A DNA stretch of 64,000 nucleotides. Origin: a virus. The position numbers were made by a program, and so were the translations under genes. The notes under the pieces were generated by a model, which worked only from the letters and a program-made list of their open reading frames with translations, did no database searches and was not told where the DNA came from. The stretch covers positions 1 through 64,000 of IMG/VR virus record IMGVR_UViG_3300025018_000113, one strand, 5' to 3'. Below are positions 1,294 through 19,507 of the stretch, one piece after another; within the stretch, counting starts at the first letter, position 1; each line of letters begins with the position of its first letter.

Positions 1294-4248
1294 ATGGAAT
1301 TGAAAGAATTTTTAGAAAGCAAAGATTTTAGGGTTGTTCAGCAAGGTCAGAACCTTGTTATGAATTGTCCGTTTTGTGATGATGAAAAACAGCGTTTTGG
1401 AATCAATAACAATCAGAACCATGCGCATTATGGATGGTGGAATTGTTTTAATTGTTTTCCAGCTTATGCACCAATTACAACAAGACGTGGTGTAATACCA
1501 ATTTCTGAAATTGTGGTGGGTGACATAGTTCTGACACTTGAAGGAAATTGGAAAAAAGTTTTACATCATCAAATAACTGGATATAAAGAAAAACTATATT
1601 CATTAAAAATAAAAAGATTTGGTGAATCATTTGATGTTACAGGTGAACACAGGGTTTTTGCTATACCAAGTAATGAAGTGAAGTTTGGACGTGGAACTGA
1701 AAAGCAAAATTACACGTTTGGAAAACCTAGGGAATTAAAAGTTGATGAACTAAGAGTTGGTGATTGGCTGGTAATGCCTAAGAACAAGTTTAGCGGTGGA
1801 ATACAAGAAATAAATTTAGAATTAGAAAAGTTTCAAGCTAAGACAGACCCCAAACCAAAAAGTATTAAACAAACCGTAAAACTTGATTATGATTTTGGTT
1901 TTATACTGGGTTTGTATATCGCAGAGGGTTCTTACAACAGGGGAATAAACTTATCACTAAATAAGAGTGAAGGTTGTGTTATTGAAACTTGTAACAGGAT
2001 TTTCAAAGAAAAGTTTAATTTAATTGGTAGAAGTTATGAACAGGGTGGTAATGAGAATAAATCTTTCTGGGTTGGGCACACGTTACTTGGACAATGGTTT
2101 CAAGAAGTTTGCGGTCACTTATCGCAGAATAAAAAATTACCATATTTCACTTTTGATGCACCAATTGAATTTCAAAATGGGTTGTTGGATGGTATTGATT
2201 GCGGTGATGGGAAAAAAGGTTGCAATACAAAATCAATTACAACAACATCAAAAGGTTTAGCTTATGAATTAAGAATATTATTAACATCACTAGGTTATGC
2301 TTCTGGGATGTATAAAAAACGGGCTGAATTAGCTGAACGGGATGGTATTTTTAGAAAAGCATTTTACAAAATAAGTTATAACAAGATTGCAAAACGCAAT
2401 TATGCTGGTTATGTTGATGATAATTTTGGTTATTACCAATTAAAAGAAATCAATCAAATTGATTACGGTGGTGACGTTTATGATTTCACAGTTGAGGGTG
2501 AACATACTTACACAGCGTTTGGTTTCGCTGTTCATAATTGTGAGACAAAAGGCCGTTCAATCAAAGCTTTCCAGAAAGCACTTTCAAAGCTTGATGGTGA
2601 ATCACTAGATAAAATTGAAATTAAGAAAACAAAAAACGAACCAAAGCACACAGAAATTGACCAACAATTGGCGTTGAAGTATTTCAACAATCGGGAAAAG
2701 AAAGGAAGAAAAGCCGTTTCATACCTAATTGAAGAAAGGGGTTTCAGTAAAGAAACAATCAACCACTTCATGCTGGGTTCGTGGAAAAAAAATGATTATG
2801 AATATGTTTCAATTCCCTTTTGGGAAGCTGGGGAACTTGTCAACATAAAGTTCAGGGCCATTCAATACAAAGATAAGAAATACAAGTGGCGTAGAATTAC
2901 TGGTGGCAAGTCTTCCCTTTTTCATGATGAAGTTTTAGATAACAACGAACTTACAGAAGTTTTTGTTTGTGAAGCTGAACTTGATGCAATTGCGCTTTAT
3001 AATGCTGGAATTCAGAATGTAATTTCTGTGACAACTGGTGCAAAGGGTTTTGCACCTGAATGGTATGATAGGCTTGAAAGATTTGAAAAAATTTATATTG
3101 TTCTGGACAATGATGTTGACGGCCAAGAAGGGGCTGAACGTCTTGCAAAAAGACTTGGAATGAAAAGATGCTGGAACATTGTTCTTCCACAAGAAGACAT
3201 TGTTGAAGGTGGAAAGAAGACAAAAGTAAAAGACTTAAATCAATATTTCTGGGACAAGGACAATAAAAAAGAAAGGCACACATTAAAAGACTTCAAAGAC
3301 TTGGTGAAGAAGTCAAAACAGTTTTCAGTTAAGGATGTAATGTCACTGACTGAAACTTTACGTCAACTAATTAAAGACAGATTCGTTGAAAATGAAGAAG
3401 AAACAGTTGGTTTTGTTACACCTTGGAAAAAAGTAAATGATATTCTTCCTAGAACAAAACCAGGCTTTTTTGTTGTTGTTACTGCAAACCCAAAAGTTGG
3501 GAAAACAACTTGGGTGATGAATTGGTTTCTGTCACTTGCAGGGCCAGAATGTCCCACTTACATTGAATGTTGTGAAATGCGACAACTTAGGGTTGCTGAA
3601 AAGTGCGTTGCCTTTGCTGTTCCAGACTTTTCAAATGTTGATGACATGACAGAAGTACAAATCAGGGAAGCACGGTTTGCACTTCCTTCTGACCACGTGT
3701 TTCTAGGTTATCCGCAAGATGGTGTTCTTGAGTTGGAAAAAGTTTGTGAGAAAATAACAAACGTAGTTCACCGCTATGGTGTAAAGATGGTTTGCTTTGA
3801 CCACCTTCACTTCCTTGTGCGTGGTGACCGTGTTCAAGACAAGATTGGTGAAGTCACAAGGCGTTTCAAACTTCTTGCAGAACAATTGGGAATTGGCCTT
3901 GTGCTGATTGCACAGCCAAGAAAAGTTGAAAATAACCGTGCCCCAACACCAAGTGATTTGAAAGATTCATCATCAATTTTCCAAGACCTTGACACACTTG
4001 TAATTCTTCACAGAAGGTTGAAGCAAGAAGATAACTTTGACAATTCAGCTGGTGAAGGTAACAACGGAAAAATGGAATCAATTACAGAACTTCACGTTGT
4101 TTCACGTTGGGGTGAAGGTGGCCAAACATTACTTAATTTCAACGGACGAAAATCAAAATATTATGAAGAAGGTATGACCTATGAAAAAGAAAGACAAAAA
4201 TTCATTGAAAAGCGTAAAGGAAAAGGTAAGTCAGGAAAGTCAAAGTGA
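1294..4248 (+). CDS. DNA primase-helicase (Zn ribbon, TOPRIM, DnaB-like SF4 helicase), intein-containing
   Basis: CPFC...CFN/C zinc ribbon; TOPRIM CEAELDA and LDNDVDG; Walker A ANPKVGKT; FDHLH, IAQPRK and DLKDSSSIFQD helicase motifs. Confidence 0.93.
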   Translation: MELKEFLESKDFRVVQQGQNLVMNCPFCDDEKQRFGINNNQNHAHYGWWNCFNCFPAYAPITTRRGVIPISEIVVGDIVLTLEGNWKKVLHHQITGYKEKLYSLKIKRFGESFDVTGEHRVFAIPSNEVKFGRGTEKQNYTFGKPRELKVDELRVGDWLVMPKNKFSGGIQEINLELEKFQAKTDPKPKSIKQTVKLDYDFGFILGLYIAEGSYNRGINLSLNKSEGCVIETCNRIFKEKFNLIGRSYEQGGNENKSFWVGHTLLGQWFQEVCGHLSQNKKLPYFTFDAPIEFQNGLLDGIDCGDGKKGCNTKSITTTSKGLAYELRILLTSLGYASGMYKKRAELAERDGIFRKAFYKISYNKIAKRNYAGYVDDNFGYYQLKEINQIDYGGDVYDFTVEGEHTYTAFGFAVHNCETKGRSIKAFQKALSKLDGESLDKIEIKKTKNEPKHTEIDQQLALKYFNNREKKGRKAVSYLIEERGFSKETINHFMLGSWKKNDYEYVSIPFWEAGELVNIKFRAIQYKDKKYKWRRITGGKSSLFHDEVLDNNELTEVFVCEAELDAIALYNAGIQNVISVTTGAKGFAPEWYDRLERFEKIYIVLDNDVDGQEGAERLAKRLGMKRCWNIVLPQEDIVEGGKKTKVKDLNQYFWDKDNKKERHTLKDFKDLVKKSKQFSVKDVMSLTETLRQLIKDRFVENEEETVGFVTPWKKVNDILPRTKPGFFVVVTANPKVGKTTWVMNWFLSLAGPECPTYIECCEMRQLRVAEKCVAFAVPDFSNVDDMTEVQIREARFALPSDHVFLGYPQDGVLELEKVCEKITNVVHRYGVKMVCFDHLHFLVRGDRVQDKIGEVTRRFKLLAEQLGIGLVLIAQPRKVENNRAPTPSDLKDSSSIFQDLDTLVILHRRLKQEDNFDNSAGEGNNGKMESITELHVVSRWGEGGQTLLNFNGRKSKYYEEGMTYEKERQKFIEKRKGKGKSGKSK
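1453..2538 (+). mobile_element. Intein with LAGLIDADG homing endonuclease in the primase zinc ribbon (362 aa)
   Basis: Starts CFPAYAPI; block B VTGEHRVF; LAGLIDADG-like LGLYIAEGS and LDGIDCGDG; ends VYDFTVEGEHTY...VHN followed by +1 Cys. Confidence 0.95.
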
Positions 4249-13549: not shown

Positions 13550-15679
13550 ATGAAGAAGGTGGTGTGGTTTTCCGACTTCCATTTAGGCTTGAAGACATCA
13601 GAAATTGATAGAACAGAAGAAATTGTTCAAGTGTGTCTTCAAGCTGTGAAACGTGCGGTTGCTTATAAGAAACAAGGAATTGATGTCAGGCTGGTCATCG
13701 GTGGTGATGTATTTCAACACAATGACCCTAGTGACTTTTTGATTTCTCAATTCATTAGAATAATCAACCCAGCTGTTGTGGTTGGAATACCAATTGACAT
13801 TGTTGTTGGAAATCATGATTCAATCGCAAACCCAGAAAAGAAGTCATGCTTGGAATCTTTTAAGAAAATGAAAGGTTCTTACAAGTGTGTTTCAGTAATT
13901 GATGACATAAAATCAATCAAGTGGTTCACAGCTGATTTTGGCCATATTCATTTGACTTATTTTCCACATATAACAAAAGCACACCTTGAAGGTGGCGGTT
14001 ATGAAACAACACAAGATTACATCGACAAAAGGGCCGAAAAGATTTTCAAGAAGATTGGGCCTGGCCAACATCAGATTGTTTTTTCACATTTGAATGTTCG
14101 TGGTCTTATTCCAGGTTCAGAAGAAAACCTTTTGAAGAAAAGTGAAGTTTGGTTTCCCGACATAATGACTGGAACAGAAGAACACAAAGCATTTGTTGGC
14201 AGTATTCCACCACTTGTCATTCAAGGTCACATTCATTGCTTGGACGAAGAAACAGAAGTTCTTACTGATTCTGGTTGGAAAAGTTATGGTGAACTTGATT
14301 ATAGTGATAAGGTTTTGACCAGACACTTAGCTTCTGGTAATGACAGTTATGAAAAAATTGAAGACATAATTGTAGATGATTACAGTGGTGAAATGGTTGC
14401 GATTGAAAATAATGTTTCAAACCATCTTGTAACACCAAACCACAAATTGTGTTATTTGCCAGCAAGTAAAAATAATTATGTTCTTGAAGAAGTAAGTGAA
14501 ATAAAAAGAAAAGTTTTACATATTCCTTGCACATCAAATGTTTCTGGAACTGGTATTCATTTAAGTGATGATTTACTAAGAATGGTTGTTTGGACTTGTG
14601 CTGATGGAAGTTTTGACCAGCACAATTGCAAATTAAGTTTCCACTTAAAAAAGCAACGCAAAATAGAAAGACTAAAAGAACTTATTACAAGGTTATCGTG
14701 TAAATTTGCCTTTGTGGAAAATAGTGATGGAACAGTCAAAATAAACATTCTTAAAAGCTGTAAAATTGGTAAGTGGTTGTTTGAAAATTTTCAGCAAGAA
14801 AAGGTTCTTCCAGAATGGTTGCGTGATGCAAACAGCGAACAAGCTAAAATAATTCTTGAAACCTATGCTGAAACTGATGGGAACTATCAAAAGAAAAATA
14901 AGAAGTGGGTTCAAATTGGTTCTGTTGTGGAACAGAATATTGATATATTACAGGAAATATTTGTGCGTAACAGTATTTCTTGTAAGAAGAACTTTAAGGA
15001 AATAAATACAGTAAATAATAAAATGTTTTACTATCTAAGTGTAAACCGTTTCCGTTGGTCAGTTGAAGTGAAAAGGGAAAAATCTTTTAAGCGTGTTCAA
15101 TACAATGGAAAAGTTTGGTGTGTTACTGTAAAAAATTCTAATTTTCTAGTAAGAAGAAGGGGAACAGTTTATTTCACTGGTAATTCAAGACAGAAGCATG
15201 AAAACATCAATGTAATTGGTGCCCCGTTATTCTGTGACTTTGGTGAAAAAGAAAAGAAGAAATATTTCTGTGAAATTGATGTTCCAGAAACATTCAATGA
15301 GAAATTCAAAATTCACTACATAAGAACAAAGTGTTTGAAGTTTGTTGAACTTGAATTTGACCTTACAAAACAAAAAGAAATCAACCCAGCAAAATATAAA
15401 AAGAAAATCAAGGGTGCAATTGTAAAGTTGAACTTCATTGTTGATGGTCACCAAGCACAACAAGACTGGGAAGCAATAAGAAAAGGTTTTCAGAAATACG
15501 CACATTATGTGAAGCCGATTGTTCCACGGTATATGAAAGACCGTGTGACTAGAAATGAAAAGCAATCACTTTCATTGCCACCAGCTGATGCGGTTAAGGT
15601 TTGGATGAAAACGCACAAACCAAAAAGAAGAAAAGAACTGACTTCATTGGCCCTTGATTACATTGAAAGGGTTTTATGA
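13550..15679 (+). CDS. Mre11/SbcD-like nuclease, intein-containing
   Basis: SDFHLG, GGDVF, GNHD, SH and GHIH metallophosphoesterase motifs; adjacent to a Rad50-like gene. Confidence 0.9.
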   Translation: MKKVVWFSDFHLGLKTSEIDRTEEIVQVCLQAVKRAVAYKKQGIDVRLVIGGDVFQHNDPSDFLISQFIRIINPAVVVGIPIDIVVGNHDSIANPEKKSCLESFKKMKGSYKCVSVIDDIKSIKWFTADFGHIHLTYFPHITKAHLEGGGYETTQDYIDKRAEKIFKKIGPGQHQIVFSHLNVRGLIPGSEENLLKKSEVWFPDIMTGTEEHKAFVGSIPPLVIQGHIHCLDEETEVLTDSGWKSYGELDYSDKVLTRHLASGNDSYEKIEDIIVDDYSGEMVAIENNVSNHLVTPNHKLCYLPASKNNYVLEEVSEIKRKVLHIPCTSNVSGTGIHLSDDLLRMVVWTCADGSFDQHNCKLSFHLKKQRKIERLKELITRLSCKFAFVENSDGTVKINILKSCKIGKWLFENFQQEKVLPEWLRDANSEQAKIILETYAETDGNYQKKNKKWVQIGSVVEQNIDILQEIFVRNSISCKKNFKEINTVNNKMFYYLSVNRFRWSVEVKREKSFKRVQYNGKVWCVTVKNSNFLVRRRGTVYFTGNSRQKHENINVIGAPLFCDFGEKEKKKYFCEIDVPETFNEKFKIHYIRTKCLKFVELEFDLTKQKEINPAKYKKKIKGAIVKLNFIVDGHQAQQDWEAIRKGFQKYAHYVKPIVPRYMKDRVTRNEKQSLSLPPADAVKVWMKTHKPKRRKELTSLALDYIERVL
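14237..15184 (+). mobile_element. Intein (316 aa) with LAGLIDADG-like domain, inserted directly after GHIH
   Basis: Starts CLDEETEVLT; block B VTPNHK; VWTCADGS and YAETDG; ends VWCVTVKNSNF...FTGN followed by +1 Ser. Confidence 0.93.
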
Positions 15680-17724
15680 AAATAAGTTATGTGAAAATGA
15701 AAAATTTCATGTTGTATAAGGACTTTCACGAAAAGTTCAAAGACAAAGACATTATTGGAATTTTGGCCGAGTATAAGAACAACCCAAGAAAGTCAAACCG
15801 TGGTGGAAAATCAACCATCACAGAAGCAATCAAATATTGCCTTTTTGGAATGTCACGGGCAAAGAAGGACATTGACTTGATTCATCATGGTGAAGAAGTC
15901 ATGTGGGTTGAAGTTGGTCTTGTTGATGATGGAAAGAAGTTCACAGTAAAGCGTGGACGTGACCACAAGAATAAAGGTCTTCTTGAATGTGATTGGATTG
16001 ATAAGAAAAAAGAAGCACAAGAAGAAATCAATCGCATTGTTGGGTGCAACGGTGAAGAACTTGAACTGACAAATTTCTTTAAGCAATCAGACATCAATCA
16101 GTTCATGGAATTAGGCCCAAACAAAAAGAAAGAACACTTTATGAAGTGGTTTAAGCAATTGCATTGGCCGAAACTTGCTGATGCTGTTGGTGAAGACTTA
16201 AAAGAAAAGAAGTCAGAACTTTCCCAGCAAAGAACAAAGAAAGAAACGCTGATTGAAGAACTATCTGATATTGATGATGTTCAGAAACAAATAAGTGAAA
16301 CAGAAAAAGCAATTAAGAAGCAACAAAAACTTCATGACAAATATGTTCTGAAACACAGAAAGCTGTTGAAGAAAGTAAAAACTAAAAAAGACAAAGATGA
16401 CATTCAGGAACAGTTGGAAGAAGTTGAACTTGAGATTGAAGAAATTCAGGAACAAGTTGAAGCAAACAAAGAACTGATTCGTGCTTATAAGAAAACAAAG
16501 CAAGCTGTCAGTGATTTGGAAGAAGACATCAAAAAGGAAACTAAGTTCCACAAGAAACTTCTTTCAGATTACAGGGATGTTCTGGCCCAAGCAAAGCAAG
16601 AACGCAAACAGGTCTTAAAAACGCTTGAACAGGTTGGTGAAAAATTTTGTGGGGTTTGCCCTATCCTAAATGAAGGTTGTGACAGAATCAAAACTGACCC
16701 AGCACAAATCAAGAAAATGAACAAGCGTGTCAAAGAACTTGATGCTGAATGTCAACAATTTGAAGAAAAGATTGAACAGCAAGAACAGGCAAGGGAAGCA
16801 CAAGAAGCCTTAAATAACCTTCAAAATAAGGCCAAATTACAGCGTGACAGGGTGAAGGCTATCAAGTCACCAGAAAAGAAGTTGGAAGCATTACAGGCCA
16901 AATTTGAAAGCCTGACAAAGCAATTGGAAGAACCAGAAGATAGCCTTGAAGACAGGCTGGAAGAATTAAGCGAAAAAATTAAAAAAATAAATACAGGCCT
17001 TGACACCTTGAACAGAAAACTAGGACAATTCCAGTCAACACTTGTCAGGCATAAGAAGACCAAGAAAAAGATTTCAACGATTGATGAAGGAATCAAAGTT
17101 CTGGAATCAGAAATTGAAAGCCTTAAATATTTGGCTTTTATGTTTGGCAAGAATGGAATTCCTTCACAGGAAATTGAAAACGCTTTCCAAGACATTGAAG
17201 AAGAAATCAACTTCATCTTGGAAAAACTGGGAACAACACTTGAAGTGACCTTCAACGCTGACAGGGAACTTGGGGGTTGGGAACCAGAATGTGTGGGTTG
17301 TGGTTGGCGGTTCCCAAAAGGTTACAGAAAAAACAGCTGTGAACAGTGTGGGGAAACAAGGCAACGGAAAAGAAAAGATGAACTTCATTTGTCGGTAACA
17401 GAAAACGGCAATGAAATGAATTTTGAAATGGAATCAGGCGGTGGAAAAACTTTTGTTTCACTTGCTGTCAGAATAGCACTGACTAGATTGATGCAAAAAC
17501 TGACTGGTTCAAACTTCAATGTTCTTTTCTTGGATGAAATTGATAGTGCTTTGGATGAAGATGCAAGGGAAAACATAATGAAATTGGTGACAACTGTTTT
17601 GATGAAAGACTTTGGTTTCCAGCAAATCTTTTGGATTTCCCATGACAAAAAAATCAAAGACAACCTTCCACACACTTTGAAAGTCATTAGGGGAAAGAAT
17701 GAAGCAAAAGCAACGTGGACTTAA
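15676..17724 (+). CDS. Rad50/SbcC-like SMC ATPase
   Basis: MKNFMLY; Walker A SNRGGKST; coiled coil with CGVCP hook; signature ESGGGK; Walker B LFLDEIDSALD; ISHD. Confidence 0.92.
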   Translation: MKISYVKMKNFMLYKDFHEKFKDKDIIGILAEYKNNPRKSNRGGKSTITEAIKYCLFGMSRAKKDIDLIHHGEEVMWVEVGLVDDGKKFTVKRGRDHKNKGLLECDWIDKKKEAQEEINRIVGCNGEELELTNFFKQSDINQFMELGPNKKKEHFMKWFKQLHWPKLADAVGEDLKEKKSELSQQRTKKETLIEELSDIDDVQKQISETEKAIKKQQKLHDKYVLKHRKLLKKVKTKKDKDDIQEQLEEVELEIEEIQEQVEANKELIRAYKKTKQAVSDLEEDIKKETKFHKKLLSDYRDVLAQAKQERKQVLKTLEQVGEKFCGVCPILNEGCDRIKTDPAQIKKMNKRVKELDAECQQFEEKIEQQEQAREAQEALNNLQNKAKLQRDRVKAIKSPEKKLEALQAKFESLTKQLEEPEDSLEDRLEELSEKIKKINTGLDTLNRKLGQFQSTLVRHKKTKKKISTIDEGIKVLESEIESLKYLAFMFGKNGIPSQEIENAFQDIEEEINFILEKLGTTLEVTFNADRELGGWEPECVGCGWRFPKGYRKNSCEQCGETRQRKRKDELHLSVTENGNEMNFEMESGGGKTFVSLAVRIALTRLMQKLTGSNFNVLFLDEIDSALDEDARENIMKLVTTVLMKDFGFQQIFWISHDKKIKDNLPHTLKVIRGKNEAKATWT

Positions 17725-19507
17725 AGTTCTGTCATTATTTGACGGACTATCAGGTGGACAAATTGCACTTAAAAAGCTTGGAATAAAAGTTTCACATTAT
17801 TATGCTTCTGAAATAGATAAGTATGCAATTCAGGTGGCACAAAATAATTTCCCAAACACAATTCAAGTTGGTGATGTTCAAAAATTAAAAGCAAAACAGT
17901 TCCCAGAAATTGATTTGTTTATTGGTGGTTCACCGTGCCAAAATTTTTCATTTGCAGGAAAGCAAGAAGGAATGGCTGGTAAGAAAGGAAAGAAGACAGT
18001 TGAAATTCTTACCTTAAAAAAATATTTGAAGTTGAAGAAACAGGGATTTGAATTTGAAGGTGAATCATTTTTGTTTTGGGAATATGTGCGTTTGTGGAAA
18101 AAAATTAAGCCTAAGTATTTCTTACTAGAAAACGTGATGATGTCTGAAAAGTGGCAAACCATTATCACAAAAGCACTTGGTGTTGAACCAATTGAAATAA
18201 ATTCAGCACTTCTTTCAGGTCAAAACAGAAGAAGACTTTATTGGACAAACATTCCAAACATAGTTCAACCAAAAGATAAGGGAATCATGTTGAAAGACGT
18301 TCTTTTGACTGATGGTGAACCAGTTTGTTGTAGTTCAAGTGGACGTGGTGGCGGTGTTGTTGAAGCAAGAATGTCTTCAAACAAGAAAGCGCACACAATG
18401 ACAAAAGCTGGTTATTCATCAAGGTCTTTTTCAGGTGTGATTGAAAAACTTGTTCATACTGACAAAGCACTTGATTACATGGATAAGAAAACAAAAGGTG
18501 GAAGAACACACTGGGAATTTTACCTTCACAATGAAAGTGATTTTGAAAAGTCACGTGCATTGACGGCAAATTTAAGAAAGGGTGTTCCTTACAATGTCTT
18601 AGTGGACAAAAGGCTAATTCTAAAAAACACTTTTGGAATTAAGACAAGAAAAGGTTATGTTGTAAGAAAGTTTCACCCGATAGAATGTGAACGGCTTCAA
18701 ACTGTTCCAATGGTGGGAAAACAGATAAGGATTGAATCATGCTTAGACCAAGCAAAGAACTTTGTGGATGCGGTAAACAGAAATCACAAATTGCAAAAAC
18801 TTGTTTCGAGTGTAGAAGGAAAACGGTTACAAGAATATGTAAAGTTTGCGTTCACAGCTACACAACAAAACCAAGTAAAAACAAAATCTACTGTTCAGCA
18901 AAATGTAGATATGCTGACACAGAAAGAAATAAAGAAATGCACAAAGTACAATCAGCAAGGTCAAAATATAAATGCAAAATTTGCAAAAAGGAACAAGACG
19001 TTCAAAAATCAAAAAAACGTGGTGGCTTCTGTTCACTCAAATGTTTTTATAAACATAATAGAGGGGAAAATAGTAAACTTTGGCAAGGTGGAATTTCAAC
19101 AGAACGACAAAAGTTTGCTGTCACTGTTGAATGGAAAAATTGCGTTAAGTTCATTTGGAAGCGTGATAAAGGAATGTGTAGAAGGTGCGGAACAGGTTTT
19201 AGAGAAATTAAAAATCAACAATTCCACATTCATCACATCATCCCATTTAAGTATAAACAATATAGAACAACTAATAGTAATTTGCTATTACTTTGCAGAA
19301 AATGTCATCAGTGGGTTCATTCCAAAGAAAACACAGAAAAACAGTTTATTGCTGAACCTTTTTGATGGTTACACAGCATCAGTGAGTGATTCACAACGCT
19401 ACAAAATGCTTGGAAATGGTTGGACAATTGATGTTATTGCACATATTTTTAAGAACCTTCCTTTTTATGAAAGAAAAAGTAAAAAGAAGTTGGTGAAAAG
19501 GTGTTGA
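17699..19507 (+). CDS. C5 DNA cytosine methyltransferase carrying a 218-aa in-frame insertion
   Basis: LSLFDGLSGG, EID, GGSPCQ, LENV, QNRRRLYW, HPIECERLQTVP, then after the insert DGYT...QRYKMLGNGW. Confidence 0.9.
   Translation: MKQKQRGLKVLSLFDGLSGGQIALKKLGIKVSHYYASEIDKYAIQVAQNNFPNTIQVGDVQKLKAKQFPEIDLFIGGSPCQNFSFAGKQEGMAGKKGKKTVEILTLKKYLKLKKQGFEFEGESFLFWEYVRLWKKIKPKYFLLENVMMSEKWQTIITKALGVEPIEINSALLSGQNRRRLYWTNIPNIVQPKDKGIMLKDVLLTDGEPVCCSSSGRGGGVVEARMSSNKKAHTMTKAGYSSRSFSGVIEKLVHTDKALDYMDKKTKGGRTHWEFYLHNESDFEKSRALTANLRKGVPYNVLVDKRLILKNTFGIKTRKGYVVRKFHPIECERLQTVPMVGKQIRIESCLDQAKNFVDAVNRNHKLQKLVSSVEGKRLQEYVKFAFTATQQNQVKTKSTVQQNVDMLTQKEIKKCTKYNQQGQNINAKFAKRNKTFKNQKNVVASVHSNVFINIIEGKIVNFGKVEFQQNDKSLLSLLNGKIALSSFGSVIKECVEGAEQVLEKLKINNSTFITSSHLSINNIEQLIVICYYFAENVISGFIPKKTQKNSLLLNLFDGYTASVSDSQRYKMLGNGWTIDVIAHIFKNLPFYERKSKKKLVKRC
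18739..19365 (+). CDS. HNH homing endonuclease nested out of frame in the methyltransferase gene
   Basis: Repeated CxxC/CSxKC zinc motifs, RGENSKLWQGG, RDKGMCRRCG, HIHHI...NLLLLCRKCHQWVH; own RBS (TAAGGA) before the ATG. Confidence 0.92.
   Translation: MLRPSKELCGCGKQKSQIAKTCFECRRKTVTRICKVCVHSYTTKPSKNKIYCSAKCRYADTERNKEMHKVQSARSKYKCKICKKEQDVQKSKKRGGFCSLKCFYKHNRGENSKLWQGGISTERQKFAVTVEWKNCVKFIWKRDKGMCRRCGTGFREIKNQQFHIHHIIPFKYKQYRTTNSNLLLLCRKCHQWVHSKENTEKQFIAEPF

Follow-up and report, generated by a model that had tools for sequence, protein, structure and literature searches.

An HNH Endonuclease Gene Hidden Out of Frame in a Viral C5 Cytosine Methyltransferase Gene and Probably Tolerated by Read-Through

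We describe here a C5 cytosine DNA methyltransferase gene that is interrupted, within the coding sequence of a conserved catalytic motif, by a homing-type HNH endonuclease gene lying in a different reading frame on the same strand. Comparison of related loci provides strong evidence of selection for a stop-free methyltransferase frame across the insert, and it is likely that the HNH gene is a mobile element that is read through in-frame as a loop of the methyltransferase. The gene occupies positions 17699–19507 (plus strand) of a 64,000-nucleotide (nt) stretch, hereafter called the window, which comprises positions 1 to 64,000 of the IMG/VR virus record IMGVR_UViG_3300025018_000113. The record is 98.7 kb long and ~94% complete, and the guanine-plus-cytosine (GC) content of the window is 36.6%. 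Homing endonucleases inside genes have long been thought to be tolerated only by way of an intron, an intein, or a splitting of the host gene.

Results and Discussion

Anatomy of the Insert

The open reading frame (ORF) of the methyltransferase, as given in the ORF list, encodes 602 residues, stays open across the insert, and matches the Pfam family PF00145 with an E value of 2e-33. Alignment to insert-free homologues assigns to its 5′ part (17699–18709, plus strand) motifs I–VIII, the target-recognition region, and the first half of motif IX, which ends in ...ECERLQTVP. The 3′ part (19364–19507, plus strand) encodes the remainder of motif IX (DGYT) and motif X (QRYKMLGNGW), as seen both in a 60-sequence alignment, where its columns are invariant or nearly so, and in a predicted model. 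The alignment columns show that motifs I, IV (PCQ), VI (ENV), VIII (QxRxR), IX, and X are all present in the methyltransferase.

In insert-free homologues from Pelagibacter and Roseobacter phages, the same region reads without interruption as ECERLQTVPDGYT or ECERLQTVPDNYT, and among the 80 nearest viral methyltransferase homologues, 69 have a spacing of exactly 17 residues between QTV and GNGW. Because these homologues read through motif IX with such a fixed spacing, the insert can be delimited as positions 18710–19363 (plus strand), between QTVP and DGYT, a site at which homologous inserts are found in other genes. This agrees with the initial annotation, which had placed 654 nt, or 218 codons free of stops in the methyltransferase frame, between ECERLQTVP and a DGYT that is normally contiguous with it.

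The insert consists almost entirely of the HNH gene (18739–19365, plus strand), which encodes 208 residues and matches Pfam PF01844 with an E value of 3.3e-10. Its ORF lies wholly within that of the methyltransferase, in frame +2 relative to the latter, so that the methyltransferase frame is the +1 frame of the HNH gene. The ATG of the HNH gene is located 29 nt inside the insert; these 29 nt (18710–18738, plus strand) form the 5′ flank and contain a Shine–Dalgarno-like AAGGA (18727–18731), 7 nt upstream of the ATG. At the other end, the TGA stop (19363–19365) borrows its GA from the Asp codon of the host DGYT. The ribosome-binding site, the short flank, and the stop codon resting on the Asp codon had all been reported in the initial annotation and are confirmed here.

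The HNH protein is built from N-terminal CxxC zinc-ribbon repeats followed by the HNH core. Among nine HNH orthologues, H163, H165, H166, N181, H190, H194, and four CxxC-type pairs are invariant, and the HNH profile matches solved HNH domains, namely the En domain of a group II maturase, the phage HNH 5H0M, and McrA. Judged by these sequence features, the nested ORF is an HNH endonuclease of the homing type. The 218-residue peptide encoded by the insert in the methyltransferase frame has no significant match to a Pfam family.

The pentanucleotide ATGGT had been pointed out at both junctions and is indeed present there, but no significance can be attached to it: the two copies are 655 rather than 654 nt apart, and related loci lack them at their junctions. 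Because of the 655-nt spacing, a deletion from repeat to repeat would shift the frame. We regard the occurrence of ATGGT at both junctions as a coincidence.

Conservation of the Open Host Frame

To gather related loci, searches were made with the HNH protein only, which are blind to the other frame and hence unbiased with respect to it. The loci found in this way come from viral contigs (L005 and L088–L095), a metagenome (L086), and metagenome-assembled genomes (MAGs) labelled Bacteroidetes, Saccharibacteria, and Bacteroidales (L098–L100). They add 11 distinct loci to the window, for a total of 12. At all 12, the HNH ORF is intact and occupies the same insertion site in the same relative frame, and the HNH +1 frame is stop-free over the whole insert and runs into a C5 methyltransferase on every side reached by the contig. 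The third frame contains many stops. The loci are not near-duplicates of each other, since pairwise HNH identity among them is 43–81%; identity to the window HNH is 42–62% for the orthologues, and the synonymous sites of the host methyltransferase cores are fully saturated between loci.

The initial annotation had raised the prospect that related HNH inserts would keep a length divisible by three and an alternative frame more open than synonymous shuffling predicts, and both are found. The insert lengths range from 648 to 678 nt, every one being a multiple of three, and the 5′ flank and the 3′ offset, which are outside the constraint of the HNH frame, are all congruent to 2 modulo 3. In 9 of 10 compared loci, corresponding to 8 of 9 distinct ones, the HNH ATG follows the QTV codon at a distance of 32 nt; the exception is L094, with 62 nt. 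A TGA stop overlapping the GAT of DGYT occurs in five lineages. When the synonymous codons of each HNH gene are shuffled within the gene, which constitutes a conservative test, the probability of obtaining no stop ranges from <0.001 to 0.38 per locus, with a product of 3e-16 for nine loci. The three MAG loci give 0.061, 0.013, and 0.012, which brings the overall product for the 12 distinct loci to ~1e-20; the loci are related, so that this product overstates their independence and is not to be taken as an exact probability.

A caveat of the initial annotation, concerning open shadow frames elsewhere in this genome, holds. When the same relative frame is examined in 57 further long ORFs of the window, it contains about 6 stops per 100 codons (roughly 3–11), and the longest open runs are 140, 119, and 107 codons. 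Natural controls are offered by free-standing HNH relatives from AT-rich phages, which have 7, 15, and 19 stops in the same frame. The open frame is thus significant because the comparative loci, and not the window alone, are all stop-free. This constitutes strong comparative evidence, at the sequence level, for selection that keeps the methyltransferase frame open.

The two overlapping reading frames differ in the constraint on their products. OLGenie-style ratios of nonsynonymous to synonymous substitution rates are ~0.2–0.3 for the HNH protein, which appears clearly to be under purifying selection, and ~0.5–0.85 for the methyltransferase-frame peptide. For three independent close pairs, with the count confined to first codon positions of the HNH gene, the ratio for the peptide is 0.67, with a bootstrap 95% confidence interval of 0.44–1.02. 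A regional test of synonymous sites gave no sign of extra constraint at the structured ends of the insert, which are no more conserved than its center.

The size of the family was gauged by searching 1.84 billion representative proteins with the read-through peptide, a search that is biased toward open frames. It returned 88 protein clusters, which like P0002–P0007 are known as protein only, 31 of them at E ≤ 1e-10, and most matches span residues ~5–215 of the 218. Among 40 clusters inspected, motif X lies just downstream of the matched segment in 39 and motif IX just upstream in 36. The clusters include distant GFP/GNAV-type methyltransferases. With clusters defined at 50% identity, the family thus contains at least 88 of them, and it is spread over aquatic and gut phages and MAGs. 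A scan of metagenomes yielded L086, which is a near-copy of part of L005, and L087, which was rejected as a family member: its HNH is unrelated and lies outside any methyltransferase, and its +1 frame is closed.

Several carriers have features of their own. L094 (positions 2024–3931 of its contig) is the most divergent one, its HNH being 42% identical to that of the window. Its methyltransferase ORF starts at motif IV (GGSPC) and continues past motif X into a second motif I-like segment (VVLSMYDG...EIDKYA...); it could be a circularly permuted enzyme or a case of tandem methyltransferase genes joined in one frame. At the junctions of L089, L095, and P0003, the host PD(N/K) is kept 5′ of the insert and (N/I)DGYT or NGYT appears again on the 3′ side. 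This echo resembles a short duplication and recalls the 11-residue similarity that has been reported for the ShiLan element (PMC11855218), to which we return below.

On the 4.7-kb contig L005, the hidden-HNH methyltransferase adjoins an apparent replicative-helicase gene (150–2019) with an intein distributed over three ORFs. The first (150–593) encodes the N-terminal Hint part, the second (590–1111), a free-standing gene for a NUMOD4/HNH_3 endonuclease, lies in another frame, its stop and start codons overlapping those of its neighbors, and the third (1096–2019) encodes the C-terminal splicing part, ending in HNC, and then the rest of the host protein. We take this locus to be a case of the "fractured gene / split intein" arrangement, reportedly described by Dassa et al. 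in 2009.

Absence of Known Splicing Signatures

The initial annotation had noted that the insert lacks intein ends and leaves no room for a ribozyme, and our searches bear this out. No intron family of Rfam is found, whether in the window (E ≤ 10) or in eight related loci (gathering score). The group I ribozyme core (Intron_gpI) is likewise unmatched in the window and the eight loci, and only 29 nt lie outside the HNH ORF. Consensus folding of nine inserts with their flanks by RNAalifold gives −13.9 kcal/mol with a covariation term of −0.19, that is, essentially none. The nucleotides expected at the ends of a group I intron are absent too, the 5′ exon ending in ...CCA, with no U, and the insert in ...TTTT, with no G; no in-frame shift of the insert boundaries provides both the exon U and the intron G.

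At the protein level, no HINT or intein family of Pfam matches either the outer protein or the read-through peptide. The latter starts with MVGKQ and ends with NLF in the window, followed by D as the +1 residue. Among relatives the ends are variable (GVVEN, LQYIK, PDNEI, and NTIYE are found elsewhere), the +1 residue is D, N, or P, and the peptide ends have no conserved C/S/T or HN residues. A gene split of the mobE type is not seen, as the ORF of 602 codons is single, with no stop followed by a restart. The lack of these signatures indicates that the insert is probably not removed as an intron or intein of a known type. RNA splicing and ribosomal bypassing are further disfavored because neither would explain the avoidance of stops.

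Predicted Structure of the Methyltransferase

A model of the 602-residue protein was calculated with AlphaFold2 on the basis of the 60-sequence alignment, which comprises 15 carriers and 45 insert-free sequences. The predicted local distance difference test score (pLDDT) of the methyltransferase core is mostly above 90, and the segment that follows the insert has values of 84–91 and is packed into the core. The first and last ~35 residues of the insert (about 338–371 and 521–555) are modelled with pLDDT values of ~68–92, as a strand (340–347) and helices up to residue 371 at the N-terminal end and as a helix (522–539) and a strand (548–555) at the C-terminal end. In the center of the insert (394–490), the pLDDT is below 50.

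The model superposes on DNMT3B with a Z score of 30.4 and a root-mean-square deviation of 2.2 Å over 256 residues, and on M.HhaI with a Z score of 26.6 over 275 of 327 residues. The fold is therefore that of a C5 methyltransferase, with Z scores of 26–30 against DNMT3 and M.HhaI, and the structural alignments cover model residues 3–595, on both sides of the insert. The model agrees with an insert that would form an extruded loop whose ends are held together while the methyltransferase core remains intact.

Mobility of the Element

A quick maximum-likelihood tree of 74 methyltransferase cores, 11 of which are carriers, shows the carriers scattered among insert-free methyltransferases. Their distribution requires 6 parsimony changes, at least 2 of which are forced by well-supported branches, and L005 is nested among insert-free genes. 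Pairwise comparisons point in the same direction. Between L089 and L095, identity amounts to 81% for the HNH proteins (0.78 at third positions); the corresponding values for the host cores are 58% and 0.31. P0004 and P0005 have inserts that are 97% identical and target-recognition regions that are unrelated (37%); conversely, L095 and P0005 share 83% identity in the target-recognition region and have divergent inserts (45%). These sequence comparisons support the view of the insert as a mobile HNH element with a disjunct distribution. We also considered L005 and L043 as an "empty site" pair, as they are close in the tree; their DNA is too diverged (56–60% upstream) for the mapping of a co-conversion tract.

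Proposed Mechanism and Alternatives

Taken together, the data make the following scenario likely. An HNH family would invade one conserved site, in motif IX (Q-T-V-x | D/N-G-Y-T), of C5 methyltransferase genes in diverse phages and prophages. The element is nearly devoid of noncoding DNA, with its 29-nt 5′ flank and a stop codon that is finished by a host codon, and its +1 frame, which is the host frame, is kept stop-free and its length a multiple of three. Ribosomes could then run through the insert and yield one polypeptide with a predicted insertion of ~218 residues between motifs IX and X, while the HNH protein would be translated separately, starting internally at the ATG of its gene. For the most part, the inserted peptide is probably a disordered loop, and its two ends pair in the model as a short stalk that leaves the core intact. 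The element would spread by cutting insert-free alleles, into which it is then copied during repair. In this scenario we infer the read-through translation, the retention of methyltransferase activity, and the homing target and its cleavage.

A stronger version of this proposal is that overprinting has shaped more than a spacer: the ~35-residue strand–helix segments at the ends would form a stalk that clamps the insert, the 602-residue enzyme would be fully active, and insulation at the protein level would replace splicing, having arisen independently of ShiLan in a different frame relation. We put this forward only tentatively, as the less probable form of the proposal.

A number of points weigh against the read-through proposal. 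For the window alone, the open frame is only suggestive, the probability of no stop being 0.14 when the codons of the HNH gene itself are permuted synonymously (20,000 shuffles) and 0.032 when codons are drawn from the codon usage of the window. Only ~1.5–2.8 stops are expected in this insert because the HNH protein is poor in L, I, V, and M. The read-through peptide, though strictly stop-free, appears from its substitution rates to be at most weakly constrained in sequence; a tolerated loop is therefore a better description than a functional domain would be. At conserved HNH residues, identical codons occur more often than expected (0.657 observed versus 0.451 expected, compared with 0.408 versus 0.408 for the host core), an excess that could equally be explained by a younger common ancestry of the element. 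That carriers conserve motif X could in part be due to a recent arrival of the insert in intact genes, the tree results from a quick search only, and RNA or protein may be excised by an unfamiliar mechanism.

Of the other explanations for the open frame, an inactivated methyltransferase deserves the most weight, although we consider it improbable. The insert would then have destroyed the activity of the enzyme, with the frame being kept open merely for ribosomes to finish the gene and thereby avoid polarity or a loss of coupling downstream. Such coupling is made plausible by the overlaps of the gene with its upstream and downstream neighbors, and the weak constraint on the peptide and the predicted disorder in the center of the insert would be in line with it. 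However, all carriers have motif X and the remainder of motif IX in invariant or nearly invariant form, just like insert-free genes, the model shows a complete and confidently predicted core on either side of the insert, and the frame is universally open even though the downstream genomic context varies between loci. Slightly less probable still is the removal of the insert by a kind of RNA splicing or protein excision that has escaped recognition, for which the open frame might be needed, e.g., in translation-dependent folding or in excision at the protein level that requires read-through. The lack of a match to known families leaves room for an unknown ribozyme or protein-splicing chemistry, the model places the two peptide ends, both structured, next to each other, as protein-level excision would need, and the authors of the ShiLan studies could not exclude such a process either (PMC11855218). 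Against this stand the 29 nt available outside the HNH ORF, the absence of Rfam introns in nine loci and of a covariation-supported structure, the missing exon U and insert G, the lack of conserved C/S/T or HN ends and of a HINT domain, and the fact that RNA splicing gives no reason for the avoidance of stops.

It is rather implausible that the HNH and the methyltransferase form a functional pair, either as a compact overlapping restriction–modification or addiction module or through domestication of the nuclease. The nesting of a nuclease gene in a methylase gene formally resembles a restriction–modification system, the HNH profile matches McrA-type HNH weakly, and co-option has been speculated on for ShiLan (PMC11855218). 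The nearly identical inserts of P0004 and P0005 are nevertheless combined with unrelated target-recognition regions, and the shared target-recognition region of L095 and P0005 with divergent inserts; because the two similarities are discordant, the specificities of nuclease and methylase cannot be matched. Moreover, 69 of 80 close methyltransferase homologues do without the insert, and the insertion point is the coding sequence of a conserved catalytic motif, as is typical of homing sites. Finally, there is hardly any chance that the open frame is a by-product of the HNH composition, with its few L, I, V, and M residues, in a frame that is naturally poor in stops. This reading can explain the window by itself, with its own-codon probability of 0.14 and the few stops expected, but it fails for the 12 of 12 distinct loci that are open, with per-locus probabilities down to <0.001 at HNH identities of 43–81%, for the 88 clusters with full-length read-through peptides, and for the free-standing relatives with their 7–19 stops.

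Genomic Setting of the Methyltransferase Gene

The start of the methyltransferase gene overlaps the 3′ end of the upstream gene, which encodes an SbcC/Rad50-like ATPase (15676–17724), by 26 nt, and its stop codon (19505–19507) overlaps the start region (GTG at 19501 or ATG at 19507) of a downstream gene of 210 codons, the product of which matches no Pfam family. Because the methyltransferase overlaps both neighbors, the arrangement of the gene ends suggests a translationally coupled operon. A scan for promoters and terminators gave nothing that exceeds shuffled sequences.

Between motifs IV and VI, the methyltransferase contains an extra K-rich segment of ~24 residues (...EILTLKKYLKLKKQGFEFEGESF..., window positions 17970–18075). 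It is missing from the pelagiphage and roseophage homologues and is common to some of the carriers (L005, L089, L098, and P0006).

Comparison with Known Systems

The closest parallel is the ShiLan domain of mycobacteriophage DNA methylases, which contains a hidden out-of-frame HNH (Gosselin et al. 2023, PMC9957025; Arsenault, Gosselin & Gogarten 2025, PMC11855218). According to these studies, which are entirely computational, the ShiLan insert has 202 codons without stops in the host frame and a disjunct distribution; its HNH is a zinc-finger protein of 195 residues that is encoded in another frame, starting 18 bp into the insert and ending in its last four bases. Features of introns or inteins are absent, and AlphaFold predicts a hairpin-like loop. 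The family described here has in common with ShiLan an insert of ~200 codons at a conserved site of a phage methylase, a stop-free host frame, a zinc-finger HNH ORF on the same strand that nearly fills the insert, the lack of an intron or intein signature, the disjunct distribution, and the loop extruded in the AlphaFold model. The window HNH is also distantly homologous to the nested HNH of phage Lamina13, with 28% identity over 124 residues and a pairwise E value of 7e-11.

The differences are nonetheless considerable. The ShiLan host is an N6/N4 methylase (PF01555) instead of a C5 methylase (PF00145), and the insert is located near residue 118 in Lamina13 instead of in motif IX near the C-terminus. 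The methylase frame is the +2 frame of the HNH in Lamina13 and the +1 frame here, and the mycobacteriophage genomes have a GC content of ~61–63%, which makes stop-free frames cheap, as compared with 36–39% here. To judge from the host family, the site, the frame, and the 28% HNH identity, the present family is of the same kind as ShiLan and is a separate lineage. The initial annotation had presented read-through as a further strategy of tolerance; the mechanism is supported by the present analysis, while its novelty is not, given the ShiLan work (PMC9957025, PMC11855218). What is new concerns the C5 methylase superfamily, the insertion site, the relative frame, and the AT-rich genomes in which stop avoidance can be demonstrated statistically.

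In our own count for Mycobacterium phage Lamina13 (L097, positions 1945–3537), the nested HNH (2300–2926), whose coding sequence is annotated in GenBank, is in frame +1 of the methylase. The ShiLan HNH frame is termed the "third frame" in PMC11855218, so either the counting or the start differs; it is not the frame used in the C5 family.

Other mobile endonucleases share single aspects of this design. Group I introns with HNH genes, such as those of I-HmuI and I-HmuII in SPO1 and SP82 and of I-PfoP3I in cyanophage Pf-WMP3 (PMC3428280), likewise place an HNH inside conserved phage coding sequence and presumably also spread when the empty allele is cleaved and then repaired. In contrast to these, the present insert has neither a ribozyme nor the U and G splice nucleotides, and its host frame is kept open, a property that would be dispensable for an intron. 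Inteins with a homing endonuclease are translated together with the host protein and reside at conserved catalytic motifs, as is predicted here, but in the present case the frames of nuclease and host protein are not the same, and a HINT domain and splicing residues are lacking. The mobE gene in Aeh1 nrdA and the fractured genes with split inteins are also instances of an intron-less homing endonuclease gene inside a host gene; those yield two polypeptides through a stop and a restart, whereas the present gene contains no stop and is predicted to yield one polypeptide.

Conclusions

The hidden-HNH design adds the read-through of an overprinted frame to the routes by which a homing endonuclease gene can be tolerated inside a host gene. 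Its prior support came from a few GC-rich mycobacteriophage genes, where open frames are cheap. The AT-rich C5 lineage, with at least 88 clusters, provides the clearest statistical proof of selection against stops for this design. Because the host family, the insertion site, and the relative frame differ from those of ShiLan, comparison of the two lineages suggests that the design arose more than once. Genes of this kind are annotated as one long "methyltransferase", so that the nuclease is overlooked. For the C5 methyltransferases themselves, the sequences analyzed here would mark the junction between motifs IX and X as permissive for large insertions.

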